A stretch of DNA of 64,000 nt, taken from NCBI GenBank assembly GCA_965205025.1, contig CBDBFU010000010.1, positions 1-64,000 on the forward strand, written 5' to 3'. Shown piece by piece: positions 52,138 to 59,440 of this stretch (position 1 is the first letter of the stretch; every line of letters begins with the position of its first letter). The stretch is from Candidatus Poribacteria bacterium. GTDB lineage: Bacteria > Poribacteria > WGA-4E > WGA-3G. The notes beneath the pieces were generated by a model, which saw nothing but the letters and a program-made list of their open reading frames with translations, was not told where the DNA came from and ran no database searches. The position numbers and the translations under genes were made by a program.

Positions 52138-53295
52138 TTATTTAGACTTGATATGCAGATGCACATCTGTTATTGCCAGTGGGGTTTGATATTTATCTAA
52201 CACCTCTATTCTAAGTCTGACTTTTTTTGTCCGAGCTTGTTTATCCGCAGTAATCGGCATACGCATTGTTTCAAATCCGTTTTTAGCGATGTTGAAGGTT
52301 TTATCAGACATTTTATATCGCAAGTTCCCGATTGTTTTTGGGAGTATACGGACTTTCAGATCTTTCGCAGTTCCGCCCTGATTAGAGATTATCAACTTGA
52401 GTCTAACACTTTCACCCGCTTCAATGTAGCCGTCCTTATTGTCCGGTTCTTCTAAAGTGGTATCAATTGAGATTTCGGGTGGCGTGGGTTGTGGTAAAAT
52501 CATTTTGAAACCACCATATCTATATGCGATAAATACGGCAGTCATAAGAATAGCGATGGGAACTAAGTATTTTATGAGTTTCTTCTGTAGTCGCCTCTGT
52601 CTTTCTTTGTTTGCCAGATAAGCGATGCCTTCTTGGAGTTGTTGTGCAGGCTGGTATGATGGATTAAGCCGTAATGCCTCGTCTACTTGGGTCTTGGCAT
52701 CCGTCAACACGCCAGTTTCCATGTAGCTTTGTGCGAGATTGTAATGAGCGATGGCATGGTTCGGTGAAGCTTTCAGCACTTTCTTGAATGCTGTTTCGGC
52801 TTGTGGATATTGCTTATTTGCAAGGAATACGATACCGCGCTCCAACTCTGTGTCAATATCAATATCATTTTCTTTGGGTGGTGTTTTCTCTTTTTCAGGA
52901 AGGGTTGTCGGGTTAGGTTGCTTTGGCGTATCTTCTTTTTCAACGGGTTTCTCGATCACATTGGGTTGTTCTGTCGGAAGGACAGCTACTTGTGGTGTTG
53001 CGGGCATACTCGGTTCAATGGCTTGTAGAAAGGAGAGTATAGGTTGGTAGGTTATATCAATCCGTAGGGCTTCTCTTGCAGCGTCTTTTGCGTCTTGGAG
53101 TCGTTGCTGCTGTAAGTAGGCAAGGGCGAGGGCGTGATAGGCTTCAATAAAATCTGAATCAAGGGATATAGCCTGCTCAAAGTGTGTTACTGCTTCATCA
53201 TATTGCCCCTCTCTTAGATATGCGTTCCCCAGTGTGTAGTGTCCATCTCTGATTTCGTTCATAGCCTCGCAATACCTCTGGTTTGTGGTAAACAC
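52138..53295 (-). CDS. TPR-containing membrane protein with a C-terminal beta domain
   Basis: Two TPR clusters, a TM helix, then DGYIEAGESVRLKLIISNQG. Confidence 0.85.
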   Translation of the reverse strand: MFTTNQRYCEAMNEIRDGHYTLGNAYLREGQYDEAVTHFEQAISLDSDFIEAYHALALAYLQQQRLQDAKDAAREALRIDITYQPILSFLQAIEPSMPATPQVAVLPTEQPNVIEKPVEKEDTPKQPNPTTLPEKEKTPPKENDIDIDTELERGIVFLANKQYPQAETAFKKVLKASPNHAIAHYNLAQSYMETGVLTDAKTQVDEALRLNPSYQPAQQLQEGIAYLANKERQRRLQKKLIKYLVPIAILMTAVFIAYRYGGFKMILPQPTPPEISIDTTLEEPDNKDGYIEAGESVRLKLIISNQGGTAKDLKVRILPKTIGNLRYKMSDKTFNIAKNGFETMRMPITADKQARTKKVRLRIEVLDKYQTPLAITDVHLHIKSK

Positions 53296-53341
53296 ATCAT
53301 AACATGCACGTCGTAGGGGTTATCCTTTTGCTGAGTTCATA

Positions 53342-53722
53342 TTATGGATTGGTCTTAGATTTATGCTTGTCTATCCGTTCCTGCCGTTCTTTCCGTAAAT
53401 CTCTGAACATATATTTAAAAGATTTTTTTATGCCTGTATTTGGGTATTTCACGGATAGATACACCGAAAGATGTAATGCACCGACTGCGATTGTAACCAA
53501 TGTCTCTAACACCAACTCAAGATCCGAATAGAAAATGCTAGCCATAATGAAAGAAGCGAGAAAAAAGTAAAGGCATTGTACTAAACCTGAATCACTCATG
53601 CTAAATTTTTCTCTATCCGCATTTACTATCATCCGTAAAACAAGATAAATGATTGTTGTATAATAGTATGCGATACATGTGGACACAAAGAATCGTAATA
53701 TCCGAATCAGTATATCTACCAT
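53342..53722 (-). CDS. Hypothetical membrane protein
   Basis: Three hydrophobic segments and a basic tail. Confidence 0.6.
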   Translation of the reverse strand: MVDILIRILRFFVSTCIAYYYTTIIYLVLRMIVNADREKFSMSDSGLVQCLYFFLASFIMASIFYSDLELVLETLVTIAVGALHLSVYLSVKYPNTGIKKSFKYMFRDLRKERQERIDKHKSKTNP

Positions 53723-53802
53723 AGTGAATGTTGCCAGTGATTTTATTTACACGCAACTGGCTGCGTTTGATTTTAGGATTGTGGGTTCTGTATGTCAATA
53801 CA

Positions 53803-54010
53803 TGTGTCCGAGTATTGACACAATGGATTTTAGGAGTGTGAGCCTTACCATCGCTTATTTCTTCTGGTTTGTGCTAAACACCTAAGCGATGTTCATAGCA
53901 GCATTGACGTCCTGTTTGGTTCATAGTATTTGATCGCCACTAAAGTTCTATTTCAACTTTTATTATATCATAAATGTACCAAATTGGTAAATAACAGCAT
54001 TCTATAGATT
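53803..54010 (-). repeat. ~205-bp promoter + structured leader repeat, copy 1
   Basis: Near-identical to 57965-58169; TTTACC-18bp-TATAAT promoter with an extended -10 TG; internal stems. Confidence 0.9.
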
Positions 54011-54309
54011 TATAGAAATCAAAGGATATTTTATAACTATGAAAATACAACATTATTCGTTAGGCGACATTGGTTGTATTTTGATTCTACTCTTTTGTAT
54101 AGCGGGGTGTTCCGATGTGTCTTTAGACTTAAATGTTCAGATGGAGGGTATAACGGAATCAGGAAGGGAATGTCGGATTCAATATTAACTATTTATGGCA
54201 TTCCTATTAAGGTAATGTGTACGTGTTGTTCAAAATTTGCATGCGTTTGGCGGGTTTTTCATAGTGCTGCAATAGAATGTTCTTTTGTGTCAGGAAATTG
54301 TTCTTTACA

Positions 54310-54427
54310 ACGTGAGTTTGATAATAGATATATGTACTTCATTTTTCAATAATTTTAATCTTATTGACCCAGTAGGTGTGGTTTCCTAAACACACCGAAC
54401 ATAAAATCTGATTTATCAAACTCCCGT
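54310..54427. mobile_element. MITE with ACGTGAGTTTGATAA ends carrying a GTAGG-type REP
   Basis: Same ends as 12987-13147; TCTTTA flanks both sides; cargo GTAGGTGTGGTTTCCTAAACACACC. Confidence 0.75.
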
Positions 54428-54480
54428 TCTTTATAGCATCATAAAACTATGAAATTATAAGGCTATAGGATTGTATGGTT

Positions 54481-54651
54481 CTATTTTTTAAAAGTACTTG
54501 CGATAGAAGTCCAAGCCAGATATATTCCAGTGATAGTGATCCCCATAATAACGATTGCTTCAAACCCAGTGTCAAATTTCTCATAAAATACTTCGCGAAC
54601 GAGCATCATGGTCATAAATATTAAAAATATAAACGAAACTATAAATCTCAT
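54481..54651 (-). CDS. 56-aa 2-TM small membrane protein (below the ORF-track cutoff)
   Basis: AAGGTAGG RBS; MRFIVSFIFLIFMTMMLVREVFYEKFDTGFEAIVIMGITITGIYLAWTSIASTFKK. Confidence 0.6.
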   Translation of the reverse strand: MRFIVSFIFLIFMTMMLVREVFYEKFDTGFEAIVIMGITITGIYLAWTSIASTFKK

Positions 54652-54844
54652 ATTAAACCTACCTTAAAGAATGTAAGCGTAAGTTTATAAGATTTCGTTT
54701 ATTGTGTCAAGTTGAAACGATAGGCGAATAAACTTGACTTCGTTGAAAACTTCTAATATATTAACTTTAATGGATAAGAATATCAGATCTACCTCTGGTA
54801 AAATCTTACCCTTATCTAAGAACCTAATACAAGGAGCATTTATT

Positions 54845-55012
54845 ATGTTAGACAAAAAGACCAATTCAATCAAAAAACAACCCAAAAACAAAAAACGGAT
54901 TACAACACCTAAACGGAAAAAGAGGAAATACAATCCCTATATGGTTGCGGGGGGTGATTCCGAGGGAAAAGTAACTTACACTTATCCCACTGGTAATTCT
55001 GAAGATTATTAG
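54845..55012 (+). CDS. Small lysine-rich protein (55 aa)
   Basis: AAGGAG RBS before MLDKKTNSIKKQPKNKKR. Confidence 0.5.
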   Translation: MLDKKTNSIKKQPKNKKRITTPKRKKRKYNPYMVAGGDSEGKVTYTYPTGNSEDY

Positions 55013-55017
55013 AATTA

Positions 55018-55920
55018 TAGTTAAAAGCAAAAATACCTTTACATTTTTCTGATTTTGTGATAATAGTTATATTATGAGATATTCACCAGACTTACGAAAA
55101 CGCGTTCTTGATTTCATAGCAGCAGGTGGTAGTAAAGCAGAAGCTTCCCGTAGATTTCAAGTTTCACGCAGATCTATCTACAACTGGTTAGACGCAGTAG
55201 ATCCTTTTACTTATGAAAAACCGGGGCCTCGTAAACCTTATCGGCTTGACCCAGAAGCACTCGCTGAACATGTCAAAGAATTCCCAGACAGCACGCAGAA
55301 GGAGCGTGCTGCACATTTTGGCGTGTCACAGCGGTGTATCTGTTATGGTCTGAAGCGGATCGGATGCACGCGAAAAAAAGACATTTACCTATAAAGAACA
55401 ATGCCCAGTCAAACAGGAGGCCTATCTCACCCAACTTCAGACAGCACTTGTGAACGGAAAAACACCTGTTTTTGTTGAGGAAAGCGGTTTTAGCACAGAA
55501 AGTGTTCGTCAGTTCGCTTATGCGCCAAGAGGGGTTTGCGTATCGGATAAAATCTCAAGCAATCGGTATAGATGCACTACGCTGATTGCTGCACAAATAC
55601 AAGGGCGTTTCACGGCTCCTGTACTTTTTGAAGGTGCTTGTGATACGCTTGCCTTCAATGCGTGGCTTGAGAGCGTGCTGTGTCCACTACTTGACGCATC
55701 ATACGTTGTCATATTGGATAATGCGTCTTTCCATAAAAGCCAGCAAACAGAGGCATTGATTGCTGCCTGTGGTGCGAGTTTACTTTTTTTACCTCCGTAT
55801 TCGCCTGAACTCAATCCTATTGAAAGAGATTTCGCGAACATAAAACGTAAATGGGAATACAATGCTGAAGCGTCAATCGATGAAATCGTAAAAATGTATA
55901 AATAATTATGATTTCCACTA
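55018..55920 (+). mobile_element. IS630-family insertion sequence, copy 2
   Basis: TA duplication at 55016-17 and 55921-22; differs from copy 1 at only a few positions. Confidence 0.95.
55074..55905 (+). CDS. IS630 transposase (frameshift-joined), first catalytic Asp changed to Glu
   Basis: A7G at 55373-55380; VEESG here versus VDESG in copy 1. Confidence 0.88.
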
Positions 55921-55956
55921 TAAATATTTCTCAAAATACGGAGGGAGGAAATATCA

Positions 55957-56418
55957 ATGAAAACTGTTTTATTTTTTTCAATACTACTCTGTTTAATAAC
56001 GGTGCCGACTTTTGGCGAGCTGTTACCTGCAGACCTTGATAAGATCCGTTTGATTGTCAAAGAAGAAAACGCTCCTATAAAGGCTGAAATCGCATCTATA
56101 AAAACTGATATTGCCTGGGTGCGTGGTAAATTTGAGGGTGTTGATGAACAGTTCGAGAGCGTTAGTAAACAAATCACACATGCAACAAATGTCACATACG
56201 CCCTCATAGCCCTTATTGTGTTCGCTGTTGGTATTCCACAGATCATCATTGCAAGGCGTAGTAAAAAGGAGTTCGGAAACGTGGTAAAGCTTGAAACCCT
56301 CACACGCGAAGAAATTGAGGCAATAATCGAAACCCTCACACGCGAAATTAAAGAAAATAATGAAACCCTTACACGCGAAGTCGAGGCCTTGAAACAGCAG
56401 CACATTGCCAATCCTTGA
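55957..56418 (+). CDS. Hypothetical membrane coiled-coil protein with three ETLTRE repeats
   Basis: GGAGG RBS; signal peptide, coiled coil, TM; GAAACCCTYACACGCGAA three times. Confidence 0.75.
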   Translation: MKTVLFFSILLCLITVPTFGELLPADLDKIRLIVKEENAPIKAEIASIKTDIAWVRGKFEGVDEQFESVSKQITHATNVTYALIALIVFAVGIPQIIIARRSKKEFGNVVKLETLTREEIEAIIETLTREIKENNETLTREVEALKQQHIANP

Positions 56419-56459
56419 TTCTTTTCATGAAATAATTCTCTCAGCTATCTTTTGCCTTT

Positions 56460-56741
56460 TTACTCCCATTTAATGACGCATTTGTTACTCAATGCGTCAG
56501 GTTCTGGATGGAACGGAGACGTTACACCTATGACTGCTATTTCCCATGTATCAGCACTAACACTAACAATCAAGCTGTCTGCTAATAGATTTAGTCGTTC
56601 AGCAATTGTCTCTTCTTCCCAGGAATCCAATGTATACATTTCTTCACACACATACGTAGTCATACCCTTGAAAGTCAAAAAAGCATAAGTAAGATAGTGT
56701 GTTTCAGGGTAAATCCCTAATAATTTTGATGGGTAATACAT
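56460..56741 (-). CDS. Hypothetical protein
   Basis: 93-aa ORF co-directional with three upstream genes. Confidence 0.45.
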   Translation of the reverse strand: MYYPSKLLGIYPETHYLTYAFLTFKGMTTYVCEEMYTLDSWEEETIAERLNLLADSLIVSVSADTWEIAVIGVTSPFHPEPDALSNKCVIKWE

Positions 56742-56778
56742 ACTATCTTAATAAGCACAGCATTACGGACTAAAATAC

Positions 56779-57027
56779 CTACGAAATGTCATTTTCCGAA
56801 TCGTTATTTTTCTTACGGTTCATACAAAATAAAATAATATTGCCAACAATCCATGCTAAAAACCACCAAATGCCGAGTCCAAGCAACTGATACGGCCACG
56901 TAGCAGCACCAACAACTAATACTACTATAGAACCAATCACGGCAAACGCAAAACAAGCAGACTTTAACCGATGTCTTTTTGTGACAATTGCAATAATGAT
57001 TAAAAGAATGATTAAAGACACAATCAT
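56779..57027 (-). CDS. Small membrane protein
   Basis: AGGAGA RBS; three hydrophobic segments. Confidence 0.7.
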   Translation of the reverse strand: MIVSLIILLIIIAIVTKRHRLKSACFAFAVIGSIVVLVVGAATWPYQLLGLGIWWFLAWIVGNIILFCMNRKKNNDSENDIS

Positions 57028-57066
57028 AGGACTAATAATCTCCTACCTTCGTGGCAAACTTGGTTG

Positions 57067-57576
57067 TTATTTCTTTTTAATATGAATTATCCCTAAATTA
57101 TCTAATGCCTCTGCAAATACTTGTCTTGGTGTTTGCTGAGGTCTGTATTGTTCATAATGGATAGGCAATTGTATCACTGCTAAAATTTCCTGTGTTTCTC
57201 GCTTCGAAATCTTAACCTGTTGCATTGTTTCGTATGATTGTACAATGTAGTCCGCTGTAAAATCATCCAATTCAAAATACCATTCGGTTTTAGATGCTTT
57301 TTGAGTTGACCTCTCTGCTTTGTTTTTCTCTTTTTCATGGGCTGCTTGTTCTTGCTCAACATATTTTATCGCAGGTCGCAAATGGACACTGACGTGGCAA
57401 CTGATAAGGATATGTTCAATTTTATTAGAGAAAGCAATTTCGCGTTCTGTGTAGTCTAAAGGGAGGACAATAAAAGACGGATTCTTCGGAACATTGCGAT
57501 AGACAACAAAATTGGTCGTGTGTGAACTACAGCCAACTAAGGTTGATATAAAGATTAACAGAAAAATAGTTTTCAT
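57067..57576 (-). CDS. Lipoprotein
   Basis: AGGAGA RBS; MKTIFLLIFISTLVG-C lipobox. Confidence 0.75.
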   Translation of the reverse strand: MKTIFLLIFISTLVGCSSHTTNFVVYRNVPKNPSFIVLPLDYTEREIAFSNKIEHILISCHVSVHLRPAIKYVEQEQAAHEKEKNKAERSTQKASKTEWYFELDDFTADYIVQSYETMQQVKISKRETQEILAVIQLPIHYEQYRPQQTPRQVFAEALDNLGIIHIKKK

Positions 57577-57662
57577 TATATTATCTCTCCTTGTGATCGT
57601 ATGTTCGCTGTTTAGATCACCATTATTAACTATTTGTGCCGTTCTTATTAAGGTAAAATTAT

Positions 57663-58013
57663 TCATTTATTCGTGTCGTGTATTTTTGAGTGGCAGTCTT
57701 TACACAGTGCGGTGAGGTCTGTGTCTTTCTCGTTGTAAATGCGTTCGTATGTCTCATGATGCACTTGAGTTGCCCGTTCTCCACATTTACGACATTTATA
57801 GTTCGCCATTCTGAGTATTTTGCGTCTTTTCGCTTTCCATTCTTTAGACTGGAGATACTCATGATAGTTCTCGCGTCTAAAGTCCCATAGCAAGGACTTT
57901 AAAGCTTTAGATGTGTTGTCAGTATGGTTTTTCTTGACCGATCGATTGTTTTTGCGTGTGTTTTTGTGTCCGAGTATTGACACAATGGATTTTAGGAGTG
58001 TAAGCCTTGCCAT
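57663..58013 (-). CDS. Small HNH endonuclease
   Basis: YLQSKEWKAKR, CRKC, QVHHETY, DLTALCKDCHSKIH. Confidence 0.9.
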   Translation of the reverse strand: MARLTLLKSIVSILGHKNTRKNNRSVKKNHTDNTSKALKSLLWDFRRENYHEYLQSKEWKAKRRKILRMANYKCRKCGERATQVHHETYERIYNEKDTDLTALCKDCHSKIHDTNK

Positions 58014-58169
58014 CGCTTATTTCCTCTGGTTTGTGCTAAACACCTAAGCGATGTTCATAGCAGCATTTGATGTCCTGTTTGGTTCATAGTATTGATCGCC
58101 ACTAAAGTTCTATTTCAACTTTATTATATCATAAATGTACCAAATTGGTAAATAGCAGCATTCTATAGA
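57965..58169 (-). repeat. ~205-bp promoter + structured leader repeat, copy 2
   Basis: Near-identical to 53803-54010; supplies the ATG and first 16 codons of the HNH ORF. Confidence 0.9.
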
Positions 58170-58429
58170 GGGTATGTAAATAATTTGTCACTATATGCGT
58201 CTATTTTGTAGCATAAACTGGTTAGTTTGTGCTATATCGCAAGGCGCAATCTGGATGAAGATTGCGATACAAATATCGGGCGGGTAGACCCCGCCCCTAC
58301 GAAGAGGAAGAGAAGAGTCGGGAATCGGAGTTCGGAATCAACGGTATGAATGCCATTTAGGCATTCCCCGCCTACAGAAGAGTCTAATGAGTAAATTAAC
58401 ACCTATGGTGATAAAAACTTTACACACCC
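58170..58429. mobile_element. IS256-like-ended MITE with a 9-bp duplication, carrying several REP hairpins
   Basis: TTCTATAGA at 58161-69 and 58430-38; the paralogous site at ~54000 is empty. Confidence 0.9.
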
Positions 58430-58449: not shown

Positions 58450-58598
58450 TATAGTAAACTTTAGATTTAATTAGACACTTTACTTGTAGGAGCGACCTCC
58501 TGGTCGCGACCGGGAGGTCGCTCCTACAGAAGAGGTGTGGGACGCGAACGTAAGTTGAGCCAATAGAAAATGTAGTATTCATTTTATTGTTTACTATA
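58450..58598. mobile_element. TA-flanked IS630-type MITE with a GTAGGAGCGACCTCC palindrome
   Basis: TATAGTAAAC...GTTTACTATA ends; internal TGTAGGAGCGACCTCC/GGAGGTCGCTCCTACA stem. Confidence 0.7.
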
Positions 58599-58806: not shown

Positions 58807-59316
58807 TTAGTGGGTTCTCCAACCGCCTTTGTAGGTTTGTATAAGCCCATCGCCATTTTTATCTGCACCGATGATGACAACTTGCTTTCCTACTGTGTTA
58901 AGGACTTCTATACCCCCGCCATTTTCATCTGAATAGATGCCGGCAGCGAGCTTTCCTCTTGAATCGTAAACGTGTATAACCCCACCAAATTCACCACCAA
59001 CTGAAAAAATGCCGGCAGCGTTCTTTCCTTCTGGGTTGCGGACTGACATTAACCCGCCAGAGTCACCTACACAAATGCTGGCAACCACCTTTCCTGCTGG
59101 GTTGTAAAAATTCATATCTCTTAAAAATCCATTGATACGGGCAACGGTTTTTCCTTCTATGTTGACAACTTCCAATTCTCTACAAACGATTTTATCAAGC
59201 ACCTGTTCATCTTGTTGTGCGTGTGTAGCACTACCACCCAGTGATGCGAGGATGTATCCTGCGATGGTAAATAGACACCCGATACACATATATCCTATCT
59301 TTTGTTTGAAATTCAT
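58807..59316 (-). CDS. Hypothetical exported protein with Gly-rich beta repeats
   Basis: GGAGA RBS before MNFKQKIG; repeated N..GK.AA.I....GG units. Confidence 0.75.
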   Translation of the reverse strand: MNFKQKIGYMCIGCLFTIAGYILASLGGSATHAQQDEQVLDKIVCRELEVVNIEGKTVARINGFLRDMNFYNPAGKVVASICVGDSGGLMSVRNPEGKNAAGIFSVGGEFGGVIHVYDSRGKLAAGIYSDENGGGIEVLNTVGKQVVIIGADKNGDGLIQTYKGGWRTH

Positions 59317-59440
59317 TATTGGTTCTCCGAATGGTTGTATTCTAAATTCATGATTAGTATATCGCTTTTTGAGTGCAGGGGTTTTGCGTCTCCCTGCAGG
59401 ACGTTTCAAAAGGATTCTTATGAAAAATCGTGTTTAATCT

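Follow-up and report, generated by a model that had tools for sequence, protein, structure and literature searches.

The window analysed here is a stretch of 64,000 nucleotides (nt) from a Candidatus Poribacteria bacterium (assembly GCA_965205025.1, contig CBDBFU010000010.1, positions 1 to 64,000), and our subject is a repeat of about 205 nt that it carries twice on the minus strand, together with the small HNH endonuclease-like gene, P0003, to which one of the copies belongs. The two copies (53803-54008 and 57965-58169) are 96% identical over their length and are spaced 4162-4163 nt apart. Each holds a promoter-like site, a leader with a stretch that resembles the end of a tnpB gene, and the first codons of the HNH gene, the complete gene being attached to copy 2 only. 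The features on which the argument depends are the following.

53803..54008, minus strand: copy 1, with promoter, leader and first 16 HNH codons, and unrelated DNA beyond
53962..53991, minus strand: sigma-70-like promoter with extended -10 in copy 1, a consensus match only
53866..53932, minus strand: tnpB 3'-end fossil in copy 1, with a core at 53879-53911 that has nucleotide homology to the RuvC-III coding end
53849..53891, minus strand: 9-bp stem CATCGCTTA / TAAGCGATG, in the minimum free energy (MFE) fold, formed between the fossil and the HNH start codon
57965..58169, minus strand: copy 2, with promoter, leader of about 100 nt and first 16 codons of the intact HNH gene
58123..58152, minus strand: sigma-70-like promoter of copy 2, twin of that in copy 1, a consensus match only
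58030..58094, minus strand: tnpB 3'-end fossil in copy 2, with a core at 58041-58074 and one extra A relative to copy 1
57663..58013, minus strand: HNH endonuclease-like gene P0003, 116 amino acids (aa), with its start ATG at 58013-58011 inside the repeat

Copies of the repeat and their ends

The promoter pattern is the same in both copies, TTTACC/TTACCA and TG-n-TATAAT separated by a spacer of 17-18 nt, and it matches the consensus at 10 of 12 positions. Downstream, in copy 1, the arm CATCGCTTA (53891-53883) pairs with TAAGCGATG (53857-53849), which includes the ATG, while a Shine-Dalgarno-like AGAAG/AGAGG sits in the loop of the stem. A hairpin of the form TGTGTC-8-GACACA at 53822-53803 lies within HNH codons 11-17. 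Copy 1 also yields an open reading frame (ORF) of 18 codons (53851-53795), 5' of the gene for a 126-aa membrane protein, P0004. An earlier reading of this DNA, made from the letters and their translations (the sequence-only reading), had described two near-identical minus-strand copies about 4.2 kb apart, each with a strong extended -10 promoter, a stem that buries an ATG and a terminal TGTGTC/GACACA hairpin, copy 2 supplying the start of a small HNH gene and copy 1 an 18-aa peptide upstream of a membrane protein gene. All of these elements are present as described, the promoter by its pattern and the stem as a perfect 9-bp pairing in the MFE fold.

The ends of the repeat are another matter. 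A third copy lies on another contig of the assembly (G000:C15:132959-133117), with 76% identity overall and about 93% within the aligned parts. It starts at the -10 region, the -35 part being gone, and it lacks 34 nt, a gap that removes the 5' stem arm and leaves no more than the first 20 nt or so of the fossil. The likeness of copies 2 and 3 goes on for some 17-20 nt beyond the point at which copy 1 diverges, through HNH codon 23, the HNH coding sequence ending at codon 16 in copy 1 and at codon 23 in copy 3. Both the left and the right ends thus vary among the three copies, and the left flanks of the two window copies (ATAAA and TACCC) have no common target motif. The left flank of copy 1, together with the first 24 nt of the repeat, recurs at 89% identity in genome G053 (L074), 5' of a divergent lipoprotein-like gene, and from the left flank of copy 2 a short resemblance continues with the region 5' of a same-genus HNH orthologue in G041 (L101). 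Because both left flanks extend homology into the upstream regions of relatives, the left edge of the repeat is not an element terminus. In addition, a small piece of the leader occurs once more in the window, where the matches to it number three, as against none in 100 shuffles.

53275..53295, minus strand: 21-nt leader piece (fossil end and ribosome-site region), directly 5' of the start of a TPR gene

The sequence-only reading had seen the copies diverge abruptly after the terminal hairpin, but copies 2 and 3 remain alike past that proposed boundary. Across the 111 other genomes of the family there were no further copies, besides short matches to the tnpB motif and chance matches inside genes. 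Those matches outside tnpB that were inspected proved to be chance likenesses in genes for an Mfd-like helicase (L075, L086 and L088), a NusA-like protein (L080) and others (L081-L083 and L085), or generic promoter-like AT-rich words (L087), and four matches to promoter words (L076-L079) gave no alignment on re-check.

The HNH gene and its start codon

P0003 belongs to the HNH proteins by its core motifs (W..KR, CxxCG, HHxxY, N and CxxCH) and by family profile, with a match to PHROG 119 at E 1e-11 and to 11 more HNH or terminase-linked PHROGs; its score against Pfam HNH, 16.8 bits, is under the 21.4-bit cut-off. In a large protein collection we found 12 homologues with E <= 1e-3, 55-91% identical in alignment. 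All of them align, ten of them over 92-100% of the query. Eight residues, C74, C77, H85, H86, N94, C104, C107 and H108, are invariant in the 13 aligned sequences.

For the interpretation of the repeat, the N-terminus is the decisive part of this alignment. The homologues keep an N-terminal segment of the type M..L..L..I.S.LG, as in MARLTLLKHIASILGHK, MKRLTSLIKQIAVAL and MKFLKILPSVISK...LRSILSELGQ, and tblastn matches in two genomes of another genus (L100 and L102) begin at residue 4 of the HNH protein. Since the homologues keep this N-terminus, the ATG buried in the stem is best taken as the native start of the HNH gene. Read in this way, what follows the fossil is the HNH gene's own predicted ribosome site and start codon and the sequence for its N-terminus, with the terminal hairpin falling inside its codons.

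The three closest HNH homologues found in genomes have short, fossil-free leaders, and among 29 fetched HNH loci none had TnpB or element DNA within 1.5 kb, bar one 18-nt chance match. A search of metagenome contigs with the HNH alignment left 80 loci, the best of which had 63% identity, and among these there was no close relative for an upstream comparison.

The family is patchy and multi-copy in its distribution, occurring in 60 of 112 family genomes, including the window's own. In this, in its core motifs and in its PHROG match it resembles the free-standing HNH genes of phages and mobile islands (PHROG 119/144 type), a likeness that extends to the position of the G041 orthologue beside a tyrosine recombinase gene. 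It differs from them in falling below the Pfam HNH cut-off and in having a family-specific, helix-like segment at the N-terminus. The G041 orthologue (L101) lies directly 3' of the gene for this 329-aa tyrosine recombinase and close to a second HNH gene, which suggests an integrative-element context for the HNH family.

The tnpB fossil in the leader

Positions 53911-53882 of copy 1 translate as DVNAAMNIA followed by a stop, and an extra A interrupts the same stretch in copy 2. When 40 relatives were searched, a single match was obtained, 27 nt long and 93% identical, in genome G023; it falls within the RuvC-III end of a 384-aa ORF, which is intact and ends ...HDRDVNAAMNIAQVGAS..., and whose product reaches 214.8 bits against NCBIfam guided_TnpB, where the cut-off is 100. 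In the wider search of the 111 other family genomes, the fossil core matched the TnpB gene of G050 at 94% over 33 nt (E 3.6e-7 per genome) and that of G023 at 91% over 33 nt (E 6.4e-6 per genome), the identity to both over 30 nt being 93-97%. When the element was aligned locally with the 3' ends of 33 TnpB loci, the six best scores (58, 54, 52, 50, 46 and 41) all exceeded the background of 200 shuffles (mean 21.9, standard deviation 3.4, maximum 32), and gapped alignments, which include loci L084, L090, L059 and L044 and span several subfamilies, widen the homology to about 65 nt (roughly 53932-53866). When the degenerate 27-mer was searched for in genome_contigs, a collection that covers 185,579 species, the only exact match came from a Candidatus Poribacteria record. 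Taken together, the alignments and the 27-mer match indicate that the fossil derives from a TnpB subfamily of the genus.

On these comparisons the DVNAAMNIA stretch is a real fossil of tnpB, related to it by true nucleotide homology. The sequence-only reading had noticed its resemblance to the RuvC-III end of TnpB, had proposed a comparison with tnpB 3' ends in related genomes and had remarked that an extra base in copy 2 breaks the coding; the comparison came out significant, and the extra base is there. What survives is a tnpB-derived fragment and not an intact or autonomous tnpB element: some 65 nt are left, with a stop and a frameshift, and there is no tnpB ORF.

TnpB matches at E <= 1e-10 are found in 35 of the 39 other genomes of the genus, some of which hold dozens of copies. 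No TnpB was found in the organism's own assembly (33 contigs, 95.5% complete), where the best scores were 15.1 bits for PF07282 and 12 bits for PF01385, and where a TnpB protein query had no match at E <= 10. Three 170-aa ORFs for Y1 (IS200-type) transposases, with near-identical Pfam scores, lie on another contig of this assembly (G000:C27, L091-L093).

Decayed fragments of insertion sequences (IS) occur in intergenic regions and in 5' untranslated regions (UTRs). The fossil is of this kind, in that a frame-broken piece of a transposon lies between a promoter and a host gene, and in that relatives have many intact copies; it differs in that the fragment pairs perfectly with the start codon and was duplicated together with the promoter.

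The 3' end of tnpB overlaps the omega-RNA, as described in the TnpB papers of 2021, and the sequence-only reading had accordingly proposed a stand-alone omega-RNA-derived non-coding RNA with its own promoter, ending at the hairpin and followed by a copy-specific guide, whose partner would be a TnpB encoded elsewhere or the HNH protein. Such an RNA would be in keeping with the position of the fossil, which lies where omega-RNAs begin, with the promoter-like site upstream and with the hairpin at the point where copies 1 and 2 diverge. However, the stretch from the ATG to the hairpin, where one would expect a scaffold to connect the tnpB 3' end with the element's right end, codes for the conserved N-terminus of the HNH family. 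Nor is there a common scaffold end followed by a copy-specific guide: the first 17-20 nt past the supposed boundary are common to copies 2 and 3, and the 34 nt missing from copy 3 take the fossil and the 5' stem arm with them. Nor was a cognate TnpB found in the 33 contigs.

Comparison with the nearest TnpB family argues in the same direction. Five G023-type elements have a common right end (...CACCGAnnCTTTAGCTCGGTGAGTATGTCAA) and diverge beyond it, and in the fold of their alignment the RuvC-III region forms a local hairpin that is followed by three helices, with compensatory change at four pairs. The window element, with its 65 nt or so of homology, has a counterpart to the first hairpin region of this predicted scaffold only; hairpins 2-4 and the right end (...TCGGTGAGTATGTCAA) do not align with it, and it has a protein-coding start after the fossil where G023-type elements have the rest of the scaffold. 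A long-range stem like the 9-bp stem was sought in the G023-type RNA, in which the RuvC-III region folds locally instead. A resemblance noted by eye between the leader and TATGATATAATA, upstream of the G023 tnpB, amounts to mere -10 consensus. The fold of the element is not unusually stable (-30.6 kcal/mol, against -28.3 +/- 3.75 for shuffles; z -0.61, with 49 of 200 shuffles equally stable). The comparison with Rfam that had been suggested gave tRNA only at the gathering score over the whole window, and a best E of 0.77 below threshold over 53700-54100. We therefore reject the guide-RNA reading as largely refuted, and consider what is left of it extremely improbable.

The fossil could also be viewed as part of a mobile unit. 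Palindrome-associated transposable elements (PATEs) and miniature inverted-repeat transposable elements (MITEs) derived from the IS200/IS605 family are short, multi-copy and IS605-derived, as the repeat is, and the copies might be an internally deleted tnpB-only IS in which the left end and tnpB promoter became fused to the last codons and right end, the product being mobilised in trans and serving as an outward promoter. In favour of this, a strong promoter-like site precedes the fossil, the genome has three Y1 transposase genes, TnpB is common in the genus, and the three copies stand 5' of three different genes. Against this, both ends vary among the copies, which have neither identical termini nor a common target motif; no hairpin ends of a parent IS were found and the copy number is three; the left flanks extend homology with relatives (G053 L074 and G041 L101); the right part is HNH coding sequence; there is no significant likeness to the left ends of TnpB elements (L029 and L032-L070; best match 30 nt, E 0.74); and the 111 other family genomes gave nothing beyond the tnpB motif and chance matches. 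We judge this origin very unlikely.

A different role for the fossil would be in cis. Were it functional, pairing of the tnpB-derived CATCGCTTA with the HNH start region in the 9-bp stem would throttle translation of a potentially toxic nuclease. The stem is perfect, forms in the centroid as well as the MFE fold and takes in the ATG; it does not differ between copies 1 and 2 and is kept in those contigs of relatives that align across it. Covariation is uninformative here because all copies are near-identical, and the stability of the overall fold, the loss of the 5' arm in copy 3 and the short, stemless leaders of HNH homologues in the same and in other genera speak against a function of this type, which we regard as doubtful and accord little weight.

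Junctions in relatives and the mosaic island

Four DNA runs (X1-X4) were compared over window positions 53300-58400. X1 and X2, which carry the same organism label and show zero differences, have contigs that break at the edges of the repeat, as is to be expected of a repeat present in two copies. X3 and X4 carry two other organism labels and come from two other studies, and their contigs pass through the repeat. The X3 contig (1431 nt) runs from 54725 to 53904 and then from 58066 to 57654, and the X4 contig (784 nt) from 54725 to 53904 and then from 58066 to 57864, so that in both the upstream flank of copy 1 (flank A) leads into one element, fossil included, and on into the HNH gene, through a joint that goes back 4163 nt.

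54009..54725, minus strand: flank A, the upstream flank of copy 1, followed by the joint 58066>53904 in the X3 and X4 contigs

From this single path, which includes the fossil, it follows that the fossil is older than the duplication, and also that the left junction of copy 2 and the right junction of copy 1 are secondary. With a complete copy 2, truncated copies 1 and 3 and a single path in X3 and X4, the pattern is that of a segmental, partial gene duplication.

A 36-nt repeat (86% identity) is present at 54180-54215 and 57621-57656 and nowhere else in the genome. One copy lies just 3' of the HNH stop and the other in flank A, and the alignment of the relatives' contig stops where the former starts. 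Farther upstream, at 58259-58400, the summed contig depth is one to three orders of magnitude over that of its neighbours in all four runs, with many loose contig ends at 58336 and 58370; this seems to be a short, widely repeated element.

The same joint can be explained in another way. The two copies might be the junctions of an integrated unit of 4.16 kb, holding the HNH gene, a lipoprotein gene, small membrane protein genes, IS630 and flank A, that entered either by Campbell-type integration or as a terminally redundant linear molecule. The joint that goes back 4163 nt fits a circle, a tandem array or a single-copy locus of flank A, element and HNH gene; the same-genus HNH orthologue adjoins a tyrosine recombinase; and the ends of the repeat are arbitrary, one lying inside a conserved upstream region and the other inside the HNH ORF. 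The unit contains, however, no recombinase besides a frameshifted IS630-type transposase, and copy 3 is left unexplained. In X3 most of the 3-kb middle of the unit (56378-57574) is uncovered at >= 85% likeness, which suggests a locus of flank A, element and HNH gene without the cargo, missing cover being weak evidence. An empty-site joint (X to B) was not among the joints listed, and that is not evidence of absence. On balance we think such an insertion unlikely, without dismissing it.

The explanation that we prefer, and consider probable with good confidence, is that the unit of about 205 nt represents the beginning of the HNH gene and the control region 5' of it, with a tnpB fossil in the UTR, and that the other copies are partial duplicates of it; it is neither an omega-RNA nor a discrete mobile element. 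The unit would consist of a sigma-70-type promoter, a 5' UTR of about 100 nt, a ribosome site, the start codon and the first 16-23 codons. An element of the IS200/IS605 family would once have inserted between the HNH promoter and the ribosome site and decayed to a stub of about 65 nt. Copy 2 would be the intact gene and copies 1 and 3 its partial duplicates, with ragged, non-coincident ends, presumably the result of recombination, illegitimate or homologous, in an island that contains IS630, other transposase genes and short common modules, and the duplicates may lend promoter activity to the genes downstream of them. An IS fossil in a 5' UTR and partial gene duplications are both known kinds of event.

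Several points weigh against this explanation. The X3 and X4 contigs on which the single path is seen are of low depth (4.65 and 2.46), and tandem duplication with deletions, Campbell-type integration and a terminally redundant 4.16-kb unit are all possible routes to the present arrangement. In an assembly of 33 contigs a multi-copy tnpB element may be lost at contig breaks. A perfect 9-bp stem exceeds chance in 200 nt (about 0.03 expected, by rough estimate), and the fossil could be in use. Promoter, UTR and start-codon use are all predicted from sequence features. Finally, pieces derived from the element lie immediately 5' of four genes, always in one orientation, and this hints at selection or at a directed process.

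The surroundings of the repeat are themselves mosaic. A promoter-like module (11 of 12 consensus matches) abuts copy 1, and it is found exactly twice in the genome (the second time at G000:C15:129429-129466, 95% identity), each time 5' of a different small gene.

53765..53802, minus strand: 38-nt promoter-like module, TTGACA-17-TAAAAT

The C15 locus has in common with the window the element, the 38-nt module and 619 nt of the TPR gene (94%), in another order, and an ORF there reads as transposase-like. The TPR gene (52138-53265) and its paralogue on C15 (L129, 10890-11508) have only these first 619 nt in common, the homology starting at the start codon and the upstream regions being unlike. 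P0004 and its short leader form a module of 418 nt (53348-53765) that is found at two loci in G055 (L217 and L218), with 87-89% nucleotide identity and unrelated flanks; it was not found in the other 38 genus genomes searched, and orthologues give no ancestral junction. Between the two window copies lies the frameshifted IS630-type transposase gene. Beyond copy 2, a palindrome with 22-nt arms, 95% complementary and without a spacer, occupies 58485-58528, and parts of it recur on C15. Farther on, a 30-nt word occurs five times at 58871-59164, with a spacing of 60-72 nt, inside a 200-aa ORF (58807-59409) that encodes a repeat protein and adjoins a dockerin/cohesin-like gene.

This context bears on the suggestion of the sequence-only reading that the repeat is a portable expression leader for captured cassettes. 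The part of it that stands is the presence of a promoter and leader 5' of three different genes. The ragged ends of the copies and the 11/12 promoter-like site that P0004 itself has after copy 1 count against it, mobility and a partnership of the RNA with the HNH protein are unsupported, and as a whole the suggestion is weakly supported. A bolder version, in which a tnpB fragment was recruited as a cis-acting translational brake on a selfish HNH gene and the promoter-leader module was then re-used 5' of genes for small envelope proteins in a variable island of Poribacteria, may be entertained, although we find it improbable.

These results carry a caution for the reading of such loci: a TnpB motif, hairpins and an abrupt divergence between copies can together mimic an orphan guide RNA, whereas protein homologues and the contigs of relatives here reveal the start of a gene with an IS fossil in it instead. 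Elements with tnpB, widespread in the genus (35 of the 39 other genomes), have apparently been lost from this lineage, a trace being all that is left. Its variable islands are assembled from short modules of promoter and gene that have been reshuffled between loci.

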